The notes beneath the pieces are model-generated. The model worked only from the letters and a program-made list of their open reading frames with translations. It made no database searches and had not been told where the DNA came from. This document shows positions 25,380-34,292 of a stretch of DNA of 64,000 nt, one piece after another. The translations under genes and the position numbers were made by a program. Position 1 is the stretch's first letter, and the number at the start of each line of letters is the position of its first letter. Where the stretch lies: assembly GCA_963764165.1 (NCBI GenBank), contig CAVXRD010000003.1, positions 256,001 through 320,000 on the forward strand. The letters run 5' to 3'. The stretch comes from an uncultured Verrucomicrobiae bacterium. GTDB taxonomy: Bacteria; Verrucomicrobiota; Verrucomicrobiia; Limisphaerales; Palsa-1400.

Positions 25380-25661
25380 TTATACGCCGGTCTTCAGCGT
25401 GTCGCGATGCTCGTCGATCGCGTTCGCGATGGCGTTCACGCTGCTGAGCATGGCGCGGGCTTTCGCGGCATCGGAAATCTTGATGCCATAATTCTTGTCG
25501 AGCGCGACCACAAGCTGCAGCGCGTCCACCGAGTCCAAGCCGAGGCTGTCCGGCCCAAACAGAGGCTGGCCGTCACCGATTTCCTCGGGCGTTACTTTGA
25601 GCATCAGGTCGTCGACCAGCATGCGTTTAATGTCCACTTTGAGCTGTTCCGATTCTGTCAT
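25380..25661 (-). CDS. Acyl carrier protein
   Basis: Small acidic protein with LGLDSVDALQL phosphopantetheine site. Confidence 0.95.
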   Translation of the reverse strand: MTESEQLKVDIKRMLVDDLMLKVTPEEIGDGQPLFGPDSLGLDSVDALQLVVALDKNYGIKISDAAKARAMLSSVNAIANAIDEHRDTLKTGV

Positions 25662-25703
25662 GTCAAACCTTTTTCTTTTCTCGATGCTTATCTTATCACC
25701 ATT

Positions 25704-26720
25704 TCACGCGCCATCAACTACGGACAAAAATCTGGCGCCGATGGCCTGCTGGCTTACTCCCACCACCGATACCGTCGCCGCTGGAAACGCGCCGCGAGCC
25801 AGCGCGTCGCATGCGGTCACGCATTGCCACGCCGCGGACGCTGTGAAGGCTTCGCCAAGCACCGTTTTGGGATGGATGCGCGCGCCGTTCCAATCCTGCC
25901 ACGCGGCAGTTTCCGCCTCGTCGAAACGCCGGCGATTGCAGATGCCATCGCAAAGGAGTTCATCTTGCGCCAGCGCCGGCAGTTGATTCCGCGCCGCGCG
26001 CGCCGCCTTTGCGCGGCATTGGCCGCCGGCCATGGTGAATCCGTCCGTGACGGCATCCAATTCCGCCAGTGCGCCAGCGCCATTCTTTGTCAAATATACA
26101 GCACCAGCGCCGCTGGCGTAAATCGCATCACGCGCAAACAGCCTGAACGCGTCCGCCACCAGCCAGTCCAATTCCTCCGACCCGATGACGATGCAGCCGT
26201 CCACCTGGTCCTGCGCCAGCCATTCTGCCGCGAGGGCCAGGCCTTGCACAAACATCCCATCGTCGCCGACCAGCGTAGCACTGGGCGCGGTGGTTCCAAA
26301 GTAGGCCGCCAGATGGCTGCCGGGCGCGTTGAAAACCGTTTCGGGAAAAATCAGCGGACTGGCCTTCGACGGGTCGCGCAGCACTTCCTCGAAGAACCGC
26401 CTCGTGTAGGGGATCAAGCCGCTGAGCATCGCGACGACGATTCCCAGCCGCGCGGGCTTATTCGAGCCTATGGCTTCCAGCGCTGCCGCGACAATGTGTT
26501 GCGACATGACGCTCACCCTGCGCAGACGGCCGTGGCTGGCAAACTCCAGACGCGTCGGCGAGTTCGGCACCGCCCGAATCCGCAAGGGCTTTGCCCAGCC
26601 CGGGCGCGCAAGATCACGCACCGCGAGTGGCGCGTTGGCGGCCACTGCGTCGCGCATGGCGGGCACGCCCCACCCCGCGGGAGAAACAGCGCCGATTCCA
26701 TTTATGAAAATGCGGCTCAC
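25704..26720 (-). CDS. Ketosynthase-like chain length factor (non-catalytic)
   Basis: KS fold motifs (INGIGAVSP, FPETVFNA); catalytic Cys position reads VGDD; NAHGT and GH motifs replaced; GTGA overlap with the KS gene. Confidence 0.85.
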   Translation of the reverse strand: MSRIFINGIGAVSPAGWGVPAMRDAVAANAPLAVRDLARPGWAKPLRIRAVPNSPTRLEFASHGRLRRVSVMSQHIVAAALEAIGSNKPARLGIVVAMLSGLIPYTRRFFEEVLRDPSKASPLIFPETVFNAPGSHLAAYFGTTAPSATLVGDDGMFVQGLALAAEWLAQDQVDGCIVIGSEELDWLVADAFRLFARDAIYASGAGAVYLTKNGAGALAELDAVTDGFTMAGGQCRAKAARAARNQLPALAQDELLCDGICNRRRFDEAETAAWQDWNGARIHPKTVLGEAFTASAAWQCVTACDALARGAFPAATVSVVGVSQQAIGARFLSVVDGA

Positions 26721-27964
26721 GTCCACCTCCGCATGACCAGTGTTGCGTTCGCGCCACCGAAGCCGAAGGAGTTTGACAGGGCAATTTCGAGCTTCGCGTC
26801 TGTTGGCTCGCGCACCACTTTGAAGTGGCAGGCAGGATCCACCGTTCCAATGGCCGTTTCCGGGGGCTGCCACTGCCCTTGCAGCGCCATCAAACAAACC
26901 ACTGCCTCGACTGCCCCCGCCGCGCCGAGCAAATGCCCGATGCTCGCCTTCGTGGAACTCACCGGGAGGCTTGCCGCCCGCGCGCCCGCCCAGCGATTGA
27001 TGGCGGCTGCTTCGGTCACATCGTTTTGCGGAGTCGCAGTTCCATGAGCATTGACGTAATCAACTTGCTCGGGGGTCACGCCCGCCATCGCACAGGCCGC
27101 ATTCATTGCGCCGAGGGCGGCGTCGCCGTTGGGGTGCGGTTGCGTCAAATGATGAATGTCAGTCGTGGCGCCGTAGCCAATAATTTCACCCAATATTTCC
27201 GCGCCGCGCTTTTGCGCATTTTCCAGCGATTCAAGAGCGAGCATCGCCGCGCCCTCCCCGAGCGTGAGGCCATCGCGCGCCGCGTCGAATGGGCGGCATG
27301 TCGTGGTGGAAAGCGCCTGCAGCGAGTCGAATCCGGCAAAGGTCAGCCGGCAAATCGCGTCGTAGCCGCCGGTGAAAACACGCGAGGCCGCGCCTCCACG
27401 GATCAATTGAAACGCATGGCCAATGGCGTTGCTCCCGGAAGCGCAGGCATTGGAAATGACCGTGACGGTTCCGGCAAATCCAAACGCATTGCAAAGCTCG
27501 AGGCCCTGCCGGTGCAATTGATATTGCATGACGCGCGTTGCCTGTTTTCGCTGGCTGGAGGGTTTTGAAATGGCATGCACCAAATATTCTTCGCCGCACG
27601 ACATCGCGCCGCTGGTCGTTCCGAGCATCACTGGAATATTCTCGCCGGGATTCCACCCAGCCTGCGTCCAGCATTCGTGGGCCGCGATCAATAGGAAGCG
27701 TCCGGCGCGGTCAAGTCGATTTGCAGCTTTAGTTGACAGGAGAGTTTTGGGAAGTTCGCTGGGCAGGTCAATTTCAGCGGCTGACTTGGCTCGCTGCCCG
27801 CTCACGTCAAAAAGTGTCACCGGGCGAAAGGCTTTCCGGCCAGCGCGGAATCCCGCCGCATTCAATTTCCAGCCCGCGCCAAGAGCGGTAATAACACCAG
27901 CGCCGGTTACGACTACTCGGTGCGTCTTGGAGGGGGCGGAATTTTGTGAGCGTGAAAACAGCAC
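26717..27964 (-). CDS. Beta-ketoacyl-ACP synthase (FabF-like, Cys-His-His intact)
   Basis: SNACASG, NAHGTAT, KASIGHLLG, NSFGFGG. Confidence 0.95.
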   Translation of the reverse strand: MLFSRSQNSAPSKTHRVVVTGAGVITALGAGWKLNAAGFRAGRKAFRPVTLFDVSGQRAKSAAEIDLPSELPKTLLSTKAANRLDRAGRFLLIAAHECWTQAGWNPGENIPVMLGTTSGAMSCGEEYLVHAISKPSSQRKQATRVMQYQLHRQGLELCNAFGFAGTVTVISNACASGSNAIGHAFQLIRGGAASRVFTGGYDAICRLTFAGFDSLQALSTTTCRPFDAARDGLTLGEGAAMLALESLENAQKRGAEILGEIIGYGATTDIHHLTQPHPNGDAALGAMNAACAMAGVTPEQVDYVNAHGTATPQNDVTEAAAINRWAGARAASLPVSSTKASIGHLLGAAGAVEAVVCLMALQGQWQPPETAIGTVDPACHFKVVREPTDAKLEIALSNSFGFGGANATLVMRRWT

Positions 27965-27974
27965 AGGGCGCGCC

Positions 27975-29003
27975 TCAGACCGGAACTTGCGCCGCCCCGC
28001 ATTGATAGAATTCCGCCAAGCCCTGCCGCGACGGTTCCAATCCCTCCGCCGCCATTGCTTCGAGAACCCGCTCTTCAGTCATGATGAAACGCTCGCGCTT
28101 GTAAATCACATAGTCCTCGCGCAGCCGGCTCGGGGTCATATTGATGGTGACGAGATTGGCGCCTGCCGCAAGGCCCTGCCGGTAGCCATCCTTGGCGGCG
28201 AGATTCAACGCGCTCACCGCCGGGATAATCCAGCCGGGCCGCATCAAGCGCATGGCGGCGATGCAGTTGAATGTCCATCCGGCGTTCGCCGGCGCCAGGC
28301 CCCGCATTGGCGTGTCCTCGCCGGGAATGAACGGACTGACACTGCAGCCGCCCAGCGGCAGCGAGGCCGCGTATTCCAAATTGCGCAGCCACGAAGCTGG
28401 CGTCTGCCCTGGCAGCCCACCGATAAATCCCGAGCTGACGAACCATCCCGTTTCCGCGAGATGCCGGATGTCGCGCTCCCGTTCCTCCAAGGTTCCAGGC
28501 GCCTTGATGCGGAGAAATTCCTCCGGATCGCCGTTCTCGAATTTCATGATGTAAATGGACGCGCCCACGCTCCGCAATTGCGCGTAGAGATCAGGCTGCA
28601 AATTGCCAAGGCAAACGCTGATGCCGATATTCCGCTCGCGCCGAACCAGCTTGATCAAAGGCAGCACTACTTCGCGCACCGCCACGGGATCCTCGCCGGT
28701 CTGGATGTTGAGGTCGGTCACACTTGCGGGAATATGATTGACGAGCATCTCCGCGATTTCCTCGGCCTTGGCGCGGAACCGGGGGAGCTGCCGATTGTCT
28801 CGCCGCATGCCGCAGTACCAGCAATTTTGCCGGCAAAAATTGGAGACTTCGACCACAGCCCGGACAAAGACACGATTCCCGAATTGGCCGCGGGTCGCGG
28901 TGGCCGCGCGTTCATGAAGCTTCGCCTGCTCGGTTCCGGCAGCGGTCAAGTCGCGCTCGTTTGGATAGTAAACCGTTTCCGACACTCTGTTAAATAAAGT
29001 CAC
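27975..29003 (-). CDS. Radical SAM enzyme, HydE/PylB/BioB-like (closest to HydE by motif)
   Basis: CRQNCWYC, QTGED, PFIPGEDTPM, GLAAGAN, C-terminal YVIY. Confidence 0.88.
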   Translation of the reverse strand: MTLFNRVSETVYYPNERDLTAAGTEQAKLHERAATATRGQFGNRVFVRAVVEVSNFCRQNCWYCGMRRDNRQLPRFRAKAEEIAEMLVNHIPASVTDLNIQTGEDPVAVREVVLPLIKLVRRERNIGISVCLGNLQPDLYAQLRSVGASIYIMKFENGDPEEFLRIKAPGTLEERERDIRHLAETGWFVSSGFIGGLPGQTPASWLRNLEYAASLPLGGCSVSPFIPGEDTPMRGLAPANAGWTFNCIAAMRLMRPGWIIPAVSALNLAAKDGYRQGLAAGANLVTINMTPSRLREDYVIYKRERFIMTEERVLEAMAAEGLEPSRQGLAEFYQCGAAQVPV

Positions 29004-29088: not shown

Positions 29089-30297
29089 TCAAGCCCGGAC
29101 GCTGGAGCGAAGCGTGATGTGAACAATCTCGGCGGGGGCATTGACGCGGAGTGGAAACCAATTCCCGACGCCGTTGGAGACAATCATCTGGCTTTCCGCA
29201 GTCGTGTACAATCCCGACCAATAGCGAAACATGGCGGGACCAAACCCATGCTGGCTGTCAAACATCAATTGCCCGCCGTGCGTGTGCCCCGAGAGTGTTA
29301 GCGGGATCTTCGCCTCCGCCGCCGGATCAAACGCGTGCGGATGATGGGACAGCAGAATTGGAAAAGCGTCCGGCTGCCGGCGCTGCATCATTTTCTGGAT
29401 GGCCGCGTTCGCCGCTTGAACCCGCTTTGGCCCCTCCGCGCGAGTCCAGCGCAGCCCGTAAAGTTCCACAGGACAGCCGCGAATTGGAACGACGACAGAC
29501 TCGTCGAGAAGCAGCGGAATTCCGGCGGCTTTGACGCGGCGCTCGAACTCCTCCCCGTTCTCAATCAAATCGTGATTGCCTTCGATCATCCACGACCCGT
29601 ATTTCGACTCCATGGACTTCACCAGGAAGATGCCTTCGGACAGATCGCTTAATGCGTCATTGATGAGATCGCCTGTCAACATCACGACGTCAGCGCGCAT
29701 TTCATTGGTCACGCGCACCATCTCCTTCAGCACACGGCCGCTCGTCAGTTTGCCGACGTGGATGTCACTCACATGCGCGATGGTCATTCCATCGAGTTGC
29801 TTGGGGAGCGCAGGCAAATTCAGCGTGAACCGGCGCACGCGGAATTGATTTAATTGAGCCAGCGCGACACCAGTAAGGCCGATGCTGAAAATAGCGGGAG
29901 CAACCGCAACGCTGGTTCCGAAGAACTCCCTGCGGGTGAGTGACTCTCCGTTTGCGTTCGACGGTTCGCCCGTCGGACCGGGATGTTTTGCGGCGCGCAT
30001 CAGCAGTCGAAATAATCCCAGCAATCCTGCCGCAACACCAATGACGATAACGAAAGCCAGGCCAAAAAAATGCCATGTGACTATGGACGTGAAGACAATC
30101 TTGGGAGTTTCGTGCAGCCATTGGACACGCCAAATGCGCTCCGCAAAGATGGCCAGGAAGCCGGCCATCTGCGCGGCCATGAAGGCTCCCAGCGCGACGC
30201 GCCAAACCCGCTGCTGGGCCAAACGCGATACCGCCCACCACCACGCCACGTCCAACGCCAGCATCACTACGATGATGCCAATGACAATCTTAAACAC
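29089..30297 (-). CDS. Membrane-anchored metallophosphoesterase (YkuE-like)
   Basis: SDIH, TGD, GNHD, SHHP, GHTHGGQ; N-terminal TM helices. Confidence 0.92.
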   Translation of the reverse strand: MFKIVIGIIVVMLALDVAWWWAVSRLAQQRVWRVALGAFMAAQMAGFLAIFAERIWRVQWLHETPKIVFTSIVTWHFFGLAFVIVIGVAAGLLGLFRLLMRAAKHPGPTGEPSNANGESLTRREFFGTSVAVAPAIFSIGLTGVALAQLNQFRVRRFTLNLPALPKQLDGMTIAHVSDIHVGKLTSGRVLKEMVRVTNEMRADVVMLTGDLINDALSDLSEGIFLVKSMESKYGSWMIEGNHDLIENGEEFERRVKAAGIPLLLDESVVVPIRGCPVELYGLRWTRAEGPKRVQAANAAIQKMMQRRQPDAFPILLSHHPHAFDPAAEAKIPLTLSGHTHGGQLMFDSQHGFGPAMFRYWSGLYTTAESQMIVSNGVGNWFPLRVNAPAEIVHITLRSSVRA

Positions 30298-30343
30298 GTC
30301 GCACCATAAGGCCGCGCGCCCAGGCTCGCAATGAGGCGAAACC

Positions 30344-31714
30344 TCACTTCGCGCCGATGGCCACCACGTGGCCTGCGGTGCGGACAAAAATGGTTCCGTC
30401 GGAAATTGCGGGAGTCGCCATGCAGACTTCGTCCATTTTGTTGGTGGCGAGGACGTTGAATTCGTTGCCCGGTTTTACGACGTAAATGGTCCCCTGCTCG
30501 CTCGCAAAATAAAGCTTCCCGGGCGACGCCACCGGCGATGACGTGAATCCGTCATCGCCAGAGCCAAGGCGCTCTTTGTAAATAGAATTGCCGGTGGCGG
30601 CGGCGAAACACGAGAGCACACCGGTTGTCTGGCAGGAATAAAGGTTGTCTCCGTAAATCAGCGGAGTCTCCATGTAAGAGGCGCCACGCGGCGTGCTCCA
30701 CGCGATTTCCGCGTTAGTCGCCGCCCCGTCCTTCAAGGATATGTCTCCGGTCGCGTTCTCGCGCACCGCGAAGATAGGACTGCGCGGCCCGTGGGCGCTC
30801 ATGATAAAAATCAACCCGTGCCACATGACCGGCGTTGGCACCGGGCAATCGCCGCCGCCGGCCAGGCGCCAAATCTCCTCGCCGGTGTTCAAATCGTAAC
30901 CGCCCATGTGCTTCCAGCCGTTGACCACCAATTGCGGCTTCGGTGCCGTCGTGCAGATGTTGGGCGTGCTCCACGTCCCGGTGTCGTCCCGTTTGGTGCG
31001 CCAAATTTCGCCGCCATTTTCAAGATTGAAGGCCGCGACAAAACCGTTGCTGACGATGTCGCATTGGACGAACAAACGATTATTATAAATGACAGGAGAG
31101 CTCGCGAAACCCCAGTCCAGCGACGACATCTCCGGCGCGGGATGATCGTTGTAAACAATAGGACTGGCCCGCAATTTGCCCAGATCTTTTTTCCACCGAA
31201 GATTGCCGTTGAGGTCGTAGCAATAAAGCCCCTCGGAGCCAAAGAACGCCACGAGGTTTGTTCCATCTGTCGCCATCGTGCAATTGGCGTGCGTGGCCTT
31301 TGGATGCCGCGCCACATTCGGCTTTCCTTCGTGGGCCGTCGCCTGCCACAGGATGCCGCCTGATTTCCGATTTAGGCAACACACCTTCCATTCTTGAATG
31401 TCATTGTCCTCGGCGGATTCGGGATCGCCATAGACGCCCACTTTGAGTGGAGCGGTCTTTGCTTTGTTGACAGCCGTCGTGACGAAGAGGCGATCACCCC
31501 AAATGATCGGACTCGAGTGCCCGAGCCCTGGAATCGCCGTTTTCCAAAGTATATTTTCGGATTTGGCGACGTTCCAAGTTGTTGGCGTTGGCGCCCCCTC
31601 AGCGATTCCATTGGCGCCCGACCCGCGAAAGGACGGCCAGTTCGTCTCCGAGGCTTCGGCAAGAGCAATTGAGAGAAGAAGGGCTGTGATGGAGATAACT
31701 TTCGAGTTTGGCAT
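30344..31714 (-). CDS. Secreted PQQ-like beta-propeller repeat protein
   Basis: Signal peptide, WPSFRG, repeated SSP/STP and G..W blades. Confidence 0.88.
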   Translation of the reverse strand: MPNSKVISITALLLSIALAEASETNWPSFRGSGANGIAEGAPTPTTWNVAKSENILWKTAIPGLGHSSPIIWGDRLFVTTAVNKAKTAPLKVGVYGDPESAEDNDIQEWKVCCLNRKSGGILWQATAHEGKPNVARHPKATHANCTMATDGTNLVAFFGSEGLYCYDLNGNLRWKKDLGKLRASPIVYNDHPAPEMSSLDWGFASSPVIYNNRLFVQCDIVSNGFVAAFNLENGGEIWRTKRDDTGTWSTPNICTTAPKPQLVVNGWKHMGGYDLNTGEEIWRLAGGGDCPVPTPVMWHGLIFIMSAHGPRSPIFAVRENATGDISLKDGAATNAEIAWSTPRGASYMETPLIYGDNLYSCQTTGVLSCFAAATGNSIYKERLGSGDDGFTSSPVASPGKLYFASEQGTIYVVKPGNEFNVLATNKMDEVCMATPAISDGTIFVRTAGHVVAIGAK

Positions 31715-31840
31715 AAACGACAGCGAAATACTGCTTGCGCTTGTCGCGAGATGCTCGCCGCGCCGCGCCGGAGATGTCAAGCCGCTTGTCAATTTCAGAT
31801 TCAACGGCATGATGACGGCCAATGTTTTCAGAGGCAATAT

Positions 31841-32197
31841 ATGGAGCCGTCCACCGCGCGATCTGAGTTCATAAAGCGCTGGATTCGCAAGGGTGTCACG
31901 ATGGCGCTCGTCACCGTTCTATTCGGATATTTCTACCAATGGGCGGCGCCCAAGGCATTCCCCTCGGCGCCACCACCGGGATTCGCGCTTGGCATGCTGC
32001 ATGGGGCGTTAATGCCAATTGCCCTGCCAAGCCTCGTCATGGGGAAAGACGTCCCGATATACTCAACCATCAACACCGGGAGATTATACAAAATTGGTTA
32101 CATTGCCGGGATCAACTTGTGCGGGCTGGTTTTCTTCGGGCCGTTGTTCTACAAGCCAGCGCCGAAAAAGCCGCGGCTTACATCCACCAGCTCGTGA
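31841..32197 (+). CDS. Small membrane protein
   Basis: Three hydrophobic segments; GMLHGALMP, YKIGY. Confidence 0.65.
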   Translation: MEPSTARSEFIKRWIRKGVTMALVTVLFGYFYQWAAPKAFPSAPPPGFALGMLHGALMPIALPSLVMGKDVPIYSTINTGRLYKIGYIAGINLCGLVFFGPLFYKPAPKKPRLTSTSS

Positions 32198-32930
32198 AAA
32201 TTTCAATCACGTTTAGCGGTCCGCCGATGTAGTAACCATTTCCAGCCATCGAGAATTGGCGATTTTTTTTGTCGTAGGCAATCAATGTTGGGCGAAGATG
32301 ATCGTTGGGATCGTAGGTTGCGAAGTTCCAACCATTCGCGGTTTCGGCAACGTCAAAAAAGCCCACCCCATGGTTGATGGTGATCTTCGGAAAATTCACG
32401 ATGTGCGCAATGGGTGCGGCGCCTGCTCCTATTTTTTCGACCAAGCCCGCCGCCGTCCGCTCCTGATGCTCGCGGGAAATTGGAAAGACCATCCGCCAAT
32501 GGCTTCGCAAGACGTAGGATTGCCAGGCCCCGCCGCACTCGGACTTCAACATGACTTCGTGCGCCGCGCTGAAGGCGGCCAGGCAATCGTAGCCCGGGAT
32601 GACAACGCGTTCCCCTGGTTTGGCGATAACGCGGGGATTGCGCGCCAGGACCTTTCGGGTCAGTTTGCGGTAGGTCTCCGCATCGGCACGCGGCGCCGCC
32701 GCATCAAACCGCGCATGATAAAAAAATTTCCGCGCGGCCTTCACGACGACGAAACAGTGGTGCGTATAGGATGGCTTGGGCACGCGCGGCTTGCAGATCA
32801 TTTTGCCCGTCTCGGGAGCAAATGTGTAATCCCATACCAGCTCGTTGGAGAAGGCAAACGTGTCGCGCCCGAAAACAAAGCGCTTTTCATTCGATACCGC
32901 GGCGGCCGTCGTCAATTCTGTTTCAATCAC
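32178..32930 (-). CDS. Hypothetical protein, possible papain-like Cys-His-Asp fold
   Basis: HHC, NH and YDPN motifs in order; start estimated. Confidence 0.6.
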   Translation of the reverse strand: MIETELTTAAAVSNEKRFVFGRDTFAFSNELVWDYTFAPETGKMICKPRVPKPSYTHHCFVVVKAARKFFYHARFDAAAPRADAETYRKLTRKVLARNPRVIAKPGERVVIPGYDCLAAFSAAHEVMLKSECGGAWQSYVLRSHWRMVFPISREHQERTAAGLVEKIGAGAAPIAHIVNFPKITINHGVGFFDVAETANGWNFATYDPNDHLRPTLIAYDKKNRQFSMAGNGYYIGGPLNVIEIFTSWWM

Positions 32931-33029: not shown

Positions 33030-34292
33030 ATGCTTTATGAACGGTGGCGGCAAATGGCGGCAGCGCGCGCGGGCGAACTGGCGCTGCGAGATTGCGGCTC
33101 GGGCCGCCGCTGGACTTTTTCCGAACTGGCGGCGGAAGGTGAGCGGCAACCCGCCATTGAAGAATTCGCGCATCCCCAAGGCAACGGCCCTGAATTCGTA
33201 TTGACGGTTCTCGCCGGGTGGCGGGATCGCAAAATCGTCTGGCCGCTTGAACCCGGCTGCACTCCCGCCGCAATTCCGAAGCCTCCGTCCAATTGCGCGC
33301 ATCTGAAAACAACCTCGGGCACCACCGGCGAACCGCGCATGGCCGCGTTTACCGCGGAACAATTGGCGGCGGACGCGGACAACATCGTAACCACAATGGG
33401 ACTCAAGCCGGAACAACCGAACCTCGGCATCATCTCGCTGGCCCATTCCTACGGATTTTCCAATTTGGTCACGCCGCTTCTGCTGCACGGAATTCCTTTG
33501 ATCCTGGCGCCATCTGTTCTGCCCGAAGTGATACGAAAGGCGGCGGGTTCAGAAAAATGTTTGACGCTCGCGGCTGTTCCCGCGATGTGGCGTTCGTGGC
33601 ATGAAGTCGGCGCGATTCCGACCAGCGTTCGTCTCGCGATTTCGGCCGGAGCGCCATTGCCTCTGGCACTGGAACGGCAGATTTTCGAATCCTCAGGATT
33701 AAAGATTCACAACTTTTACGGCGCGTCGGAGTGCGGCGGAATTGCCTACGATGCGACCGAAATTCCGCGCGAAGACTCGGCTTGCGCCGGATCACCAATG
33801 AACAACGTCCGTCTTTCCCTCAATGATGAGGGCTGCATCCGCGTTCATAGCAACGCTGCGGGCGAAACTTATTGGCCAAATGTGAATCATGCTCTGGGCG
33901 GGGGCAAATTCGACACCTCGGATGTCGCGGAGCTTCGCAATGAATTGGTTTATCTGCGCGGACGCTTGGGCGACCAGATCAACGTGGCTGGCCGCAAGCT
34001 CTGGCCGGAAACAGTCGAGCGGGCCTTGCTAGCGCATCCAGGCGTCCGTGAATGCGTCGTCTTTGGCGCGCCTTCCACGCAAGAGGAGCGAACGGAGACT
34101 GTCATCGCCGTCGTATCAACAACGGCGGCGGAATCGGAGCTGAAGGCTTTTCTTTTGCAGACGCTGCCCCCGTGGCAGGTCCCGCGGGAATGGCGCTTCG
34201 TGCCTTCCCTGGCGGCTGGTTCTCGCGGAAAAATTTCACGGGCCGAATGGCGGCGGCGAATCTTGGAGGAATCCGCCTTTCCTGCCACTTAG
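33030..34292 (+). CDS. AMP-binding (adenylate-forming) acyl ligase, short form
   Basis: TTSGTTGEP, HSYG, SAGAPL, FYGASE, TSD, GR..DQINVAG, terminal GK. Confidence 0.92.
   Translation: MLYERWRQMAAARAGELALRDCGSGRRWTFSELAAEGERQPAIEEFAHPQGNGPEFVLTVLAGWRDRKIVWPLEPGCTPAAIPKPPSNCAHLKTTSGTTGEPRMAAFTAEQLAADADNIVTTMGLKPEQPNLGIISLAHSYGFSNLVTPLLLHGIPLILAPSVLPEVIRKAAGSEKCLTLAAVPAMWRSWHEVGAIPTSVRLAISAGAPLPLALERQIFESSGLKIHNFYGASECGGIAYDATEIPREDSACAGSPMNNVRLSLNDEGCIRVHSNAAGETYWPNVNHALGGGKFDTSDVAELRNELVYLRGRLGDQINVAGRKLWPETVERALLAHPGVRECVVFGAPSTQEERTETVIAVVSTTAAESELKAFLLQTLPPWQVPREWRFVPSLAAGSRGKISRAEWRRRILEESAFPAT

Follow-up and report, generated by a model that had tools for sequence, protein, structure and literature searches.

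A HydE-like radical SAM enzyme, and its candidate role in starter-acid formation, in a predicted aryl-polyene/xanthomonadin-type lipid cluster of Limisphaerales

PylB rearranges the carbon skeleton of a small amino acid without cobalamin, and the solved radical SAM enzymes with a full barrel are known to take small substrates. NosI, NosJ and NosK have roles in the starter route of nosiheptide, and the ape clusters of E. coli and Xenorhabdus are aryl-polyene type II PKS clusters. HydE, the closest solved relative by both sequence and fold of the enzyme described here, adds a radical to sulfur (PMC11826987); its Met224 and Met291 hold iron, and Arg54, Thr134, Arg155 and Thr269 contact cyanide (PMC11826987, PMC10114646). 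The full-barrel fold family is listed in PMC9046217, which also gives the NosL reaction. The paper on xanthomonadin clusters mentions no radical SAM enzyme, with 0 occurrences of the word 'radical' (PMC3691225). A literature search covering few subscription papers returned no paper on the present enzyme or on its pairing with a ketosynthase, chain-length factor and acyl carrier protein.

The operon and its split cluster

The window, the whole 64-kb stretch of DNA analyzed, contains four co-directional genes (Table 1). As the initial annotation had described, the gene of the HydE/PylB-like radical SAM enzyme (rSAM) lies 10 bp from that of an active ketosynthase (KS), which overlaps by 4 bp (GTGA) the gene of an inactive, chain-length-factor (CLF) type homologue, followed after 42 bp by a dedicated acyl carrier protein (ACP). 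The KS catalytic triad was confirmed and is the same in 12 of 12 relatives, all three residues are absent from the CLF (in 13 of 13 sequences Glu stands where the final His would be), and the ACP was confirmed by its motif and domain score. The rSAM reading frame encodes 342 aa if GTG 29003 is used; the database copy (P0001) has 336 aa, corresponding to GTG 28985, which is the probable start. One promoter-like site (9/12) lies at the rSAM start (28993-28965); sigma-70-like sites numbered 8 versus 3.4 expected, and terminator-like sites 18 versus 13.4 expected.

Table 1. Positions of the operon and neighboring genes in the window
Feature	Position	Strand	Remarks
Dedicated ACP	25380..25661	-	PF00550 over cut-off; LDSVDAL motif
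Inactive KS homologue, CLF type	25704..26720	-	PF13723 weak; best PDB match 9s5h_C, E 9e-10
Active KS, FabF-like	26717..27964	-	Cys174-His307-His344; distinct from housekeeping FabF
HydE/PylB-like rSAM	27975..29003	-	CxxxCxxC at 57-64; predicted full TIM barrel
Metallophosphoesterase and PQQ-type beta-propeller (two non-cluster genes)	29089..31837	-	
Small membrane protein of the cluster, no family	31841..32197	+	in 46/80 related loci
DUF8321/DUF8322 protein	32178..32930	-	predicted papain-like fold; invariant Cys59/His187/Asp207
AMP ligase, acyl/aryl-acid type	33030..34292	+	A4 motif HSYG in 12/12 relatives

The description of this operon as minimal did not survive, as both the window and contig C4 of the same genome carry further genes of the cluster. 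Found 3-5 kb upstream of the operon are the AMP ligase, which likely loads a starter acid, and the DUF8321/DUF8322 protein, likely a carrier-to-acceptor acyltransferase or hydrolase. A VIA search with the model of this protein gave middling Z scores (8.2-4.4) to rows that were almost all cysteine-protease folds, and Foldseek returned no match for it at E<=0.001. The metallophosphoesterase/beta-propeller pair fills the slot of glycosyltransferase and methyltransferase genes in relatives; a glycosyltransferase occurs in 54 of 80 related loci, and the source genome has no orthologue of it (best match 39%). The second arm (C4:101505-107572, orthologues at 55-71% identity) encodes a FabZ-like dehydratase, LolA, an MMPL-acyltransferase and a carrier-type flavin halogenase closest to the carrier-tethered halogenases 3e1t, ChlB4 and PltA. 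The source genome cluster is thus split over two contigs.

The genes found include those of an aryl-polyene-type system, namely an active KS with an inactive partner, an ACP, a dehydratase, a ketoreductase (in the source genome housekeeping FabG only), an AMP ligase, an acyltransferase, an MMPL exporter and a LolA-type carrier. Judged from this gene content, the operon belongs to an aryl-polyene/xanthomonadin-type lipid cluster of Limisphaerales that is split in two, and makes up one of its arms; the product of the cluster is likely a pigment-like outer-membrane lipid. The suggestion of an undescribed pathway was borne out in part: no characterized pathway with the rSAM was found, but the cluster type itself is known (aryl-polyene/xanthomonadin-like, 'ladderane-type').

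The KS scored 357 bits against the fabF profile (cut-off 494), is 34-36% identical to the two other KS proteins of the source genome, and is matched by the nearest plasmid KS at no more than 41%. It also fell under the cut-offs of PRK09185 (283 < 407) and PRK09116 (255 < 470), families tied to aryl-polyene (APE) clusters, in a comparison made by score; the ACP was below the PRK09184 cut-off. The clusters of relatives include FabG. No orthologue of that gene was present in the source genome, where the best match (37-45%) is the FabG beside the housekeeping acp-fabF. Reductase and dehydratase functions had been proposed to be borrowed from elsewhere; this probably applies to the ketoreductase, but the dehydratase is the cluster's own, on C4.

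A radical SAM enzyme apart from HydE and BioB

The initial annotation had likened the rSAM to HydE through a set of motifs, amongst which CRQNCWYC, QTGED, YIMKFEN, GAN and YVIY were found and the BioB motif YNHN was absent. Two details needed correction, in that the PFIP motif reads PFIPGEDTP, with three residues in between, and the YxxY motif (YVIY, 298-301) lies 41 residues before the C-terminus. The structural model (pLDDT 82) predicts a complete, closed eight-stranded barrel with the YxxY lid retained, and its best fold match was HydE, followed by PylB; BioB matched at TM 0.74-0.76.

It is hardly credible that the gene encodes a genuine HydE, or a remnant of a hydrogenase maturation system located here by accident. 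HydE is indeed the best NCBIfam and PDB match, but the rSAM scored 177 bits against the HydE profile TIGR03956, below a cut-off (254.6) that is itself leaky, as four proteins outside the HydE branch pass it at 255-273. HydE rows formed their own branch in the tree (SH-aLRT 100), and Met224 and Met291, retained in 70 of 70 HydE-branch sequences, are replaced in 119 of 119 rSAM relatives. In the alignment of these relatives, Gly219, Thr286, Ser129 and Ser264 occur in 119/119, and of the iron-holding and cyanide-contacting residues of HydE only Arg54 is retained. Arg48 and Lys154 of the rSAM occupy the positions of HydE Arg54 and Arg159, and the pocket, while invariant across the 119 relatives (Ile150 in 115/119), differs from that of HydE at most positions. 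Additionally, no hydA, hydF, hydG or pylB was over cut-off in the whole source assembly (97% complete), and hydF was present in 6 of 121 genomes of the order sample and in 0 of the 49 with the rSAM.

Sulfur insertion into an acyl chain of the BioB/LipA type, amongst the reactions first suggested, is highly improbable. The barrel family is shared with BioB, many rSAM relatives carry the JGI label 'biotin synthase', and Cys131 and Cys220 are conserved among them. Against this, the rSAM reached 47 bits with the BioB profile TIGR00433 (cut-off 225), and a true bioB (369 bits) lies elsewhere in the genome. Cys/Arg positions of that BioB, amongst them those that bind the [2Fe-2S] cluster, align with Arg48, Ile150, Ser190 and Ser264 of the rSAM, so that ligands for a second Fe-S cluster are missing; no sulfur-supply gene was found among the recurring cluster neighbors. 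Scores, residues and gene content thus exclude HydE and BioB, the two identities that could have overturned the initial annotation, and by score the rSAM is not PylB (114.5 bits with TIGR03910, cut-off 348.2). Cispentacin-type AmcF/AmcB were considered and rejected, with scores under their cut-offs (201 < 325; 42 < 80), and the ESM Atlas returned automatic names alone.

Distribution in Limisphaerales and the wider HydE-like group

Cluster genomes, defined by presence of the CLF or papain-fold gene, made up 69 of 121 sampled Limisphaerales genomes; the rSAM was confined to this set and present in 49 of its members. Among the 80 best GTDB rSAM loci, KS was present in 49, CLF in 46 and ACP in 41, and 10 loci had zero cluster genes. 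Where at least 7 kb of downstream sequence was available (49 loci), 35 had KS, 33 had KS, CLF and ACP together, and 14 had no KS nearby. The linkage of the rSAM to KS/CLF/ACP, on which the first reading depended, holds in many genomes and is not by chance.

Halogenase and rSAM occurred together in 42 of the 69 cluster genomes, rSAM alone in 7, halogenase alone in 7 and neither in 13, and for the cobalamin (B12) radical SAM family TIGR04072 the corresponding numbers were 39 with rSAM only, 15 with TIGR04072 only, 10 with both and 5 with neither; as the genomes are akin, these counts overstate association. TIGR04072 was detected in 25/121 genomes at E<=1e-80 and in 19/121 over cut-off (394 > 360 in a relative), and had no match in the source genome at E<=1e-80.

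The alternation of the two enzymes bears on the proposal that the rSAM rearranges, branches or cyclizes the chain while it is tethered to the ACP, in the slot of the cobalamin radical SAM enzyme of ladderane-type clusters. Also in its favor, an AU test on the KS tree rejects a single clade of the six lineages with TIGR04072 only (p 0.0025), the rSAM in most loci lies directly before KS or a B12 radical SAM pair and not before the AMP ligase, and the cavity would be widened by the Gly and Thr that replace Met224 and Met291. Radical action on ACP-bound chains has been proposed for ladderane clusters in a section of PMC13459092. However, the full eight-stranded barrel with its lid is a form associated with small substrates, and the rSAM and TIGR04072 stand side by side in 10 genomes, which suggests that they are not simply one step. 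This action, which the initial annotation had favored, is possible but on the unlikely side, and we rank it second.

Further evidence came from the wider, unnamed HydE-like group to which the rSAM belongs by sequence, taken here as all non-HydE members rather than as a clade. A first metagenome scan with 29 distant sequences gave no usable pattern. KS was within 6 kb in 0 of 80 wider-group metagenome loci, many of which are short, so that KS could lie further out. In the 48 loci of at least 5 kb, an AMP ligase was within 6 kb in 16, the largest context was an operon of HemN-like radical SAM, methyltransferase and EamA genes without AMP ligase (19/48), and 13/48 had neither; because of these mixed contexts, the group may hold several reactions. 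Plasmid-borne members are surrounded by genes for AMP ligase, carrier protein and glycosyltransferase, and domain scans of 21 long members revealed an AMP-binding fusion in 2 and a methyltransferase fusion in 5. The occurrence with AMP ligases and carrier proteins, and without KS, favors the making of a starter acid over modification of an ACP-bound chain. The AMP ligase was also retained without the rSAM in genomes G437, G464 and G417, which suggests that it can accept another starter.

Members of a separate branch are found in xanthomonadin-like lipid clusters (L125, L126, L134, L138, L169), beside halogenase, ACP and AMP ligase genes. An AU test rejected one clade of these members and the Verrucomicrobia family (p 0.0009, 27 rows), and thus the pairing of HydE-like rSAM with such lipid clusters probably arose twice.

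Methyltransferases were the commonest wider-group neighbors (22/48 loci). Together with the fusions, and with the presence of the rSAM in 18 of 21 genomes carrying the cluster methyltransferase, this is consistent with retained HydE chemistry, in which the 5'-deoxyadenosyl radical would be added to a sulfur or double bond, yielding either a head group bearing an adenosyl moiety or, for the neighboring methyltransferases, a cofactor resembling SAM, in keeping with the known reaction of this closest solved relative. We consider this clearly unlikely, as the cluster methyltransferase is missing from 31 of 49 rSAM genomes, the source included, the source genome also has no orthologue of the cluster glycosyltransferase, and the pocket is unlike that of HydE. 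The same absence led to rejection of the methyltransferase MT20 as an obligate rSAM partner.

Proposed role and comparison with known systems

Our leading reading, held tentatively and somewhat short of probable, is that within this split aryl-polyene/xanthomonadin-type arm the rSAM produces, from a small soluble metabolite, the carboxylic acid with which the chain starts, likely through radical carbon-carbon cleavage and rearrangement as in PylB and NosL. SAM would be cleaved at the CxxxCxxC cluster, and the 5'-deoxyadenosyl radical would attack a small anionic substrate inside the closed barrel (Arg48, Lys154). The AMP ligase would then adenylate the product and load the ACP, and the flavin halogenase may act on the ACP-bound starter. 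As the clusters showed no enoyl reductase, extension by KS/CLF, housekeeping FabG and the C4 dehydratase would probably give a polyene. Transfer of the chain to a lipid acceptor would fall to the papain-fold protein and the MMPL-fused acyltransferase domain, and MMPL and LolA would take the lipid to the outer membrane. A bolder extension, which we regard as unlikely, is that the wider family consists of carbon-skeleton mutases that work without cobalamin and supply carrier-protein pathways with starter acids, and that in Verrucomicrobia it replaces TIGR04072 of ladderane-type clusters, with lineages repeatedly keeping either one.

The cluster is common to over half of the sampled members of a soil, peat and freshwater group. 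The rSAM forms a tight uncharacterized family, and the 'biotin synthase' or HydE labels given to it in databases may distort tallies of biotin and hydrogenase pathways. Since the chemistry of each solved member of the barrel family is unusual, a new reaction is likely here. If the mutase and TIGR04072-replacement reading were true, solving this enzyme, which is small, soluble and independent of B12, would open up the radical step of those unsolved lipid clusters, together with a new halogenated lipid in the outer membrane of bacteria abundant in soil and peat. Natural variants (rSAM only, B12 radical SAM only, both) lend themselves to lipidomics comparison and may give access, without B12, to the radical step of ladderane-type clusters.

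HydE of T. maritima (PDB 3ciw, 7o1t; TIGR03956) shares the full TIM barrel (TM 0.83, 28% identity) and Arg54, Gln107, Glu161, Arg180, Asn293, Tyr303 and Tyr306. The rSAM differs in Met224 to Gly, Met291 to Thr, Arg155 to Ile, Thr134 to Ser, Thr269 to Ser and Val105 to Asn, and lies in a lipid cluster of a genome lacking hydA, hydF and hydG. The methylornithine synthase PylB (PDB 3t7v; TIGR03910) has the same fold (TM 0.81, 26% identity), a likeness judged by score and fold, but the rSAM scores far below the cut-off of that profile and has a different gene context. With NosL-NosI-NosJ-NosK of nosiheptide, the likeness lies in the proposed logic of an acid made by a barrel radical SAM enzyme, carrier loading by an AMP ligase and hand-over by a cysteine-type transferase; NosL itself is distant (TM 0.64, 15% identity), and the likeness is not taken to extend to an aromatic amino acid substrate.

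Ladderane-type FAS II systems (Kuenenia cluster I, Desulfotalea; PMC2649909, bioRxiv 10.64898/2026.05.19.726425) share a KS/CLF-like heterodimer, a dedicated ACP and dehydratase, and radical SAM genes, and relatives of the present cluster carry TIGR04072 over cut-off. The source genome, however, lacks TIGR04072, its rSAM is HydE-like and not cobalamin-binding, and no phytoene-desaturase-like gene was among the recurring neighbors. Relative to the xanthomonadin/aryl-polyene clusters of Lysobacter and Xanthomonas (PMC3691225), the present cluster is distinguished by a single ACP and a single KS/CLF pair, of which the ACP and the KS score under the PRK cut-offs given above, by a fusion of MMPL with a lipid A-type acyltransferase, the papain-fold DUF8321/8322 protein and the two-contig split, but it shares with them a KS with an inactive partner, an ACP, a KR, a FabA/Z-like dehydratase, an acyltransferase, an exporter, a LolA-type carrier, an optional halogenase and, in relatives, a glycosyltransferase-like gene.

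The gene cluster and its second arm

The four open reading frames described in the initial annotation were confirmed at the coordinates in the table, together with the states of their catalytic residues and the spacings of 10, -4 (GTGA) and 42 bp that separate, in order, the HydE-like radical SAM gene (rSAM), the KS, its inactive homologue (CLF) and the ACP. The description of this operon as minimal had to be given up, since further cluster genes lie upstream in the window (C3:256001-320000) and a second arm lies on contig C4 of the source genome (7.0 Mb, 97% complete). There, orthologues (55-71% identity) of the cluster's dehydratase, LolA, MMPL-acyltransferase, lipoprotein and halogenase are grouped at C4:101505-107572, directly behind kdsA and lptB. 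Genome searches did not find orthologues of the cluster GT2, FabG, methyltransferase or B12 rSAM.

Cluster genes in the window
Feature	Position	Strand	Remark
ACP	25380-25661	-
KS homologue	25704-26720	-	lacks all three catalytic residues
KS	26717-27964	-	active-site Cys174/His307/His344
rSAM	27975-29003	-	HydE/PylB-like; HydE, PylB and BioB profile scores all below cut-off
Small membrane protein	31841-32197	+	upstream, past two unrelated genes
DUF8321/8322 protein	32178-32930	-	upstream, past two unrelated genes
AMP ligase	33030-34292	+	upstream, past two unrelated genes

The halogenase-lipoprotein-MMPL-LolA-dehydratase arm (L088:8506-18340, equal to C4:101505-111339) follows kdsA and lptB so closely, starting within a few bases of the lptB stop, that it may share a transcript with these LPS synthesis and transport genes. 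Outside the window, ARAGORN places 10 tRNA genes in a row at C2:1559019-1567965, one of them called with the stop-reading anticodon TTA; this may be a mobile tRNA array or else a miscall.

Of 512 pattern matches in a GTDB scan, 470 were confirmed as rSAM relatives, a number that may include true HydE. The best 80 of the 470 (60-70% identity; 69 with titles naming Verrucomicrobia, frequently Limisphaerales or Pedosphaera, the other 11 bearing a different name or none) were analysed with genes called by a custom script, which gives approximate starts, and with 25 recurring gene families scanned with Pfam. The recurring set combines rSAM, zero to two cobalamin rSAMs, KS, CLF, FabG, ACP, a FabA/Z-like dehydratase, AMP ligase, the DUF8321/8322 protein, a small membrane protein, GT2, flavin halogenase, lipoprotein, LolA and an MMPL that is fused to a lipid A-type acyltransferase; LPLAT, polysaccharide deacetylase and methyltransferases are optional. 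The claimed linkage of rSAM homologues to KS, CLF and ACP recurs in 49, 46 and 41 of these best 80 loci, counts that are affected, like those that follow, by the many loci ending at contig ends: GT2 54, membrane protein 46, DUF protein 31, AMP ligase 29, methyltransferase 22, dehydratase 18, LolA 18, MMPL 15, B12 rSAM 10, halogenase 9, and no cluster gene 10. A second halogenase-like flavoprotein, longer at about 535 aa and accompanied by an uncharacterised 190-aa protein, is inserted in reverse orientation between rSAM and KS at L056:3801-5982 and about 15 other loci, and is absent from the source genome.

Fold and pocket of the radical SAM enzyme

The rSAM protein scored 177 bits against the HydE profile (cut-off 254.6), 114.5 against PylB (348.2) and 47 against BioB (225). 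The reported absence of hydA, hydF and hydG extends to the whole genome, in which none of these, nor pylB, exceeded its cut-off, and a true bioB was found elsewhere by genome search. The AlphaFold model (pLDDT 82) matched HydE best (TM 0.83), followed by PylB (0.81), BioB (0.74-0.76) and then HydG, ThiH and NosL.

PMC11826987 and PMC10114646 give Met224 and Met291 as the iron-holding residues of HydE, and Arg54, Thr134, Arg155 and Thr269 as its cyanide contacts. When these positions were mapped by alignment with 3ciw onto the rSAM family (120 proteins listed in the homologue search, or 119 at 66-84% identity without the window's own), Gly219, Thr286, Arg48, Ser129 and Ser264 were found in 119/119 and Ile150 in 115/119. 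Gly219 and Thr286 replace the two Met residues, which are retained in 70/70 HydE-branch sequences, and HydF is present in none of the 49 rSAM genomes of a 121-genome search. Despite the fold, a true HydE can therefore practically be dismissed. HydE-like adenosyl transfer by rSAM is unlikely.

Conserved Cys residues beyond CxxxCxxC are only Cys131, Cys220 and Cys247, and the sites that are Cys or Arg in the genome's own BioB hold other residues here, so that a sacrificial sulfur cluster is unlikely on this residue pattern; sulfur insertion, one of the activities initially suggested, is accordingly very improbable. BioB itself was rejected on the same replacements, the low score and the separate bioB. 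Across the family, 23 of 25 tabulated positions are identical in at least 118/119 relatives, a constancy that speaks for an active enzyme having a single defined substrate.

Distribution and the wider HydE-like group

Judged by sequence similarity, the family is tight and narrowly spread, since only 4 of 401 genomes from the phylum gave a match of at least 53% (at least 350 bits) and the next score was 168 bits at 35%. More remote second copies (53-55%) occur in genomes G433 (L106:10164-11252, with no cluster gene within about 10 kb), G415 and G418.

Within the order, every gene was searched for in one set of 121 genomes, each at least 90% complete and the source genome among them, giving rSAM in 49, CLF in 61, the DUF protein in 67, methyltransferase in 21, halogenase in 50, TIGR04072, the cobalamin rSAM of ladderane-type clusters, in 25, and HydF in 6. 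All 49 rSAM genomes fall inside the 69 with CLF or DUF protein (45 have CLF). The enzyme is optional, being absent from 20 of these 69 and cleanly missing from the intact cluster of the single-contig genome G437; one genome outside the order (G153, L101) has it in the same cluster. Among the 69, halogenase goes with rSAM (both in 42, either one alone in 7 each, neither in 13), whereas rSAM and TIGR04072 alternate (10 both, 39 rSAM only, 15 TIGR04072 only), with 5 genomes having neither against about 13 expected under independence. Kin genomes are non-independent and most are fragmented, so these are patterns rather than tests of mechanism. On a quick LG+G4 KS tree of 54 rows, with GTDB loci labelled by locus rather than genome, the six TIGR04072-only genomes placed (of 15) need 4 changes, and a single clade was rejected (AU p 0.0025).

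A profile search run on representatives of 50% clusters listed a best 150, of which 125 were long enough to be placed. In addition to the family and the HydE branch they include 51 HydE-like proteins, which share Lys154, Ser221, Ser264, Thr286, Tyr301 and Arg305 with the family; 33 of the 51 retain Met224. Four of them (P0133, P0138, P0141, P0142), although outside the HydE branch, narrowly exceed the TIGR03956 cut-off at 255-273 bits and can therefore be labelled HydE by automated annotation. In a quick tree, HydE and the family each formed one branch (SH-aLRT 100), with deeper order not resolved.

Among 21 long wider-group members scanned, fusion to an AMP-binding domain was seen in two (P0156, Roseibium; P0169, Omnitrophota) and fusion to a methyltransferase in five. 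On plasmids of Streptomyces viridifaciens and Bacillus mycoides, members lie in biosynthetic clusters that also encode AMP ligase, carrier protein and glycosyltransferase; other plasmid members have different settings. In 80 metagenome loci from one sub-branch, searched within 6 kb with local HMMs, KS was found in none; the 48 that reach 5 kb or more had AMP ligase in 16, HemN-like rSAM in 19 (never together), neither in 13, and methyltransferase in 22. Loci L125, L126, L134, L138 and L169 hold xanthomonadin-like lipid clusters or rSAM beside halogenase. A single clade of their rSAMs with the Verrucomicrobia family was rejected (AU p 0.0009), and the pairing with xanthomonadin-like clusters probably arose independently in the two.

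The Streptomyces plasmid cluster (CP090840.1, L121:2803-20902) encodes two AMP-binding and two carrier proteins, glycosyltransferase, GalE, phosphatases, a transglutaminase-domain protein, the HydE-like rSAM, a NUDIX hydrolase, C and A domains and a PIG-L deacetylase, and offers a cultured host for testing the wider group. On the Bacillus plasmid (NZ_CP035996.1, L122:2150-15897), B12 rSAM, adenylating enzyme, carrier protein, glycosyltransferase and HydE-like rSAM form a single operon. A further operon of HydE-like rSAM, HemN-like rSAM, methyltransferase, EamA transporter and small protein recurs on at least two tree branches (L109, L123, L139, L145, L150, L156, L189 and others).

Proposed route and comparison with known systems

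The AMP ligase is closest to acyl- and aryl-acid ligases and has an HSYG motif where amino-acid A domains carry their amine-binding Asp. The halogenase has GxGxxG, a catalytic-type Lys and WxWxIP, and its closest relatives are carrier-tethered halogenases, which act on carrier-bound substrates. In the DUF8321/8322 protein, Cys, His and Asp residues are invariant and the predicted fold is papain-like, at middling Z, as would suit an acyltransferase.

We tentatively propose, at slightly less than even confidence, a route whose chemical steps are all inferred. The rSAM would convert a soluble metabolite to a small starter acid by radical C-C cleavage and rearrangement, the AMP ligase would load it on the ACP, the halogenase would decorate the loaded starter, KS/CLF with FabG and dehydratase would extend it, and acyltransferases, MMPL and LolA would deliver the product into the outer membrane. 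Action of rSAM on the ACP-bound chain, as the initial annotation had it, is rather unlikely. The probability left beyond the starter-acid reading and its four rivals (action on the ACP-bound chain, HydE-like adenosyl transfer, sulfur insertion and a true HydE) belongs to reactions not listed here.

Targeted literature searches found nothing on this rSAM enzyme. New here are the separately located second arm, the exclusion of HydE and BioB by individual residues, the fusion or proximity of wider-group members to AMP ligases, a pairing with xanthomonadin-like clusters that probably arose independently, and the contrasting association of rSAM with halogenase (together) and TIGR04072 (alternating). 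Judged by its genes, the cluster would work like an aryl-polyene/xanthomonadin assembly line, strict membership of the APE clade being at most putative. Its parts list agrees with that of the xanthomonadin-like cluster in PMC3691225, and PMC8692599 records, with no further detail, Verrucomicrobia clusters called as aryl-polyene or ladderane class. Overlap also exists with the ladderane-type clusters of PMC2649909, bioRxiv 10.64898/2026.05.19.726425 and PMC13459092, but these have TIGR04072, whereas the source genome does not.
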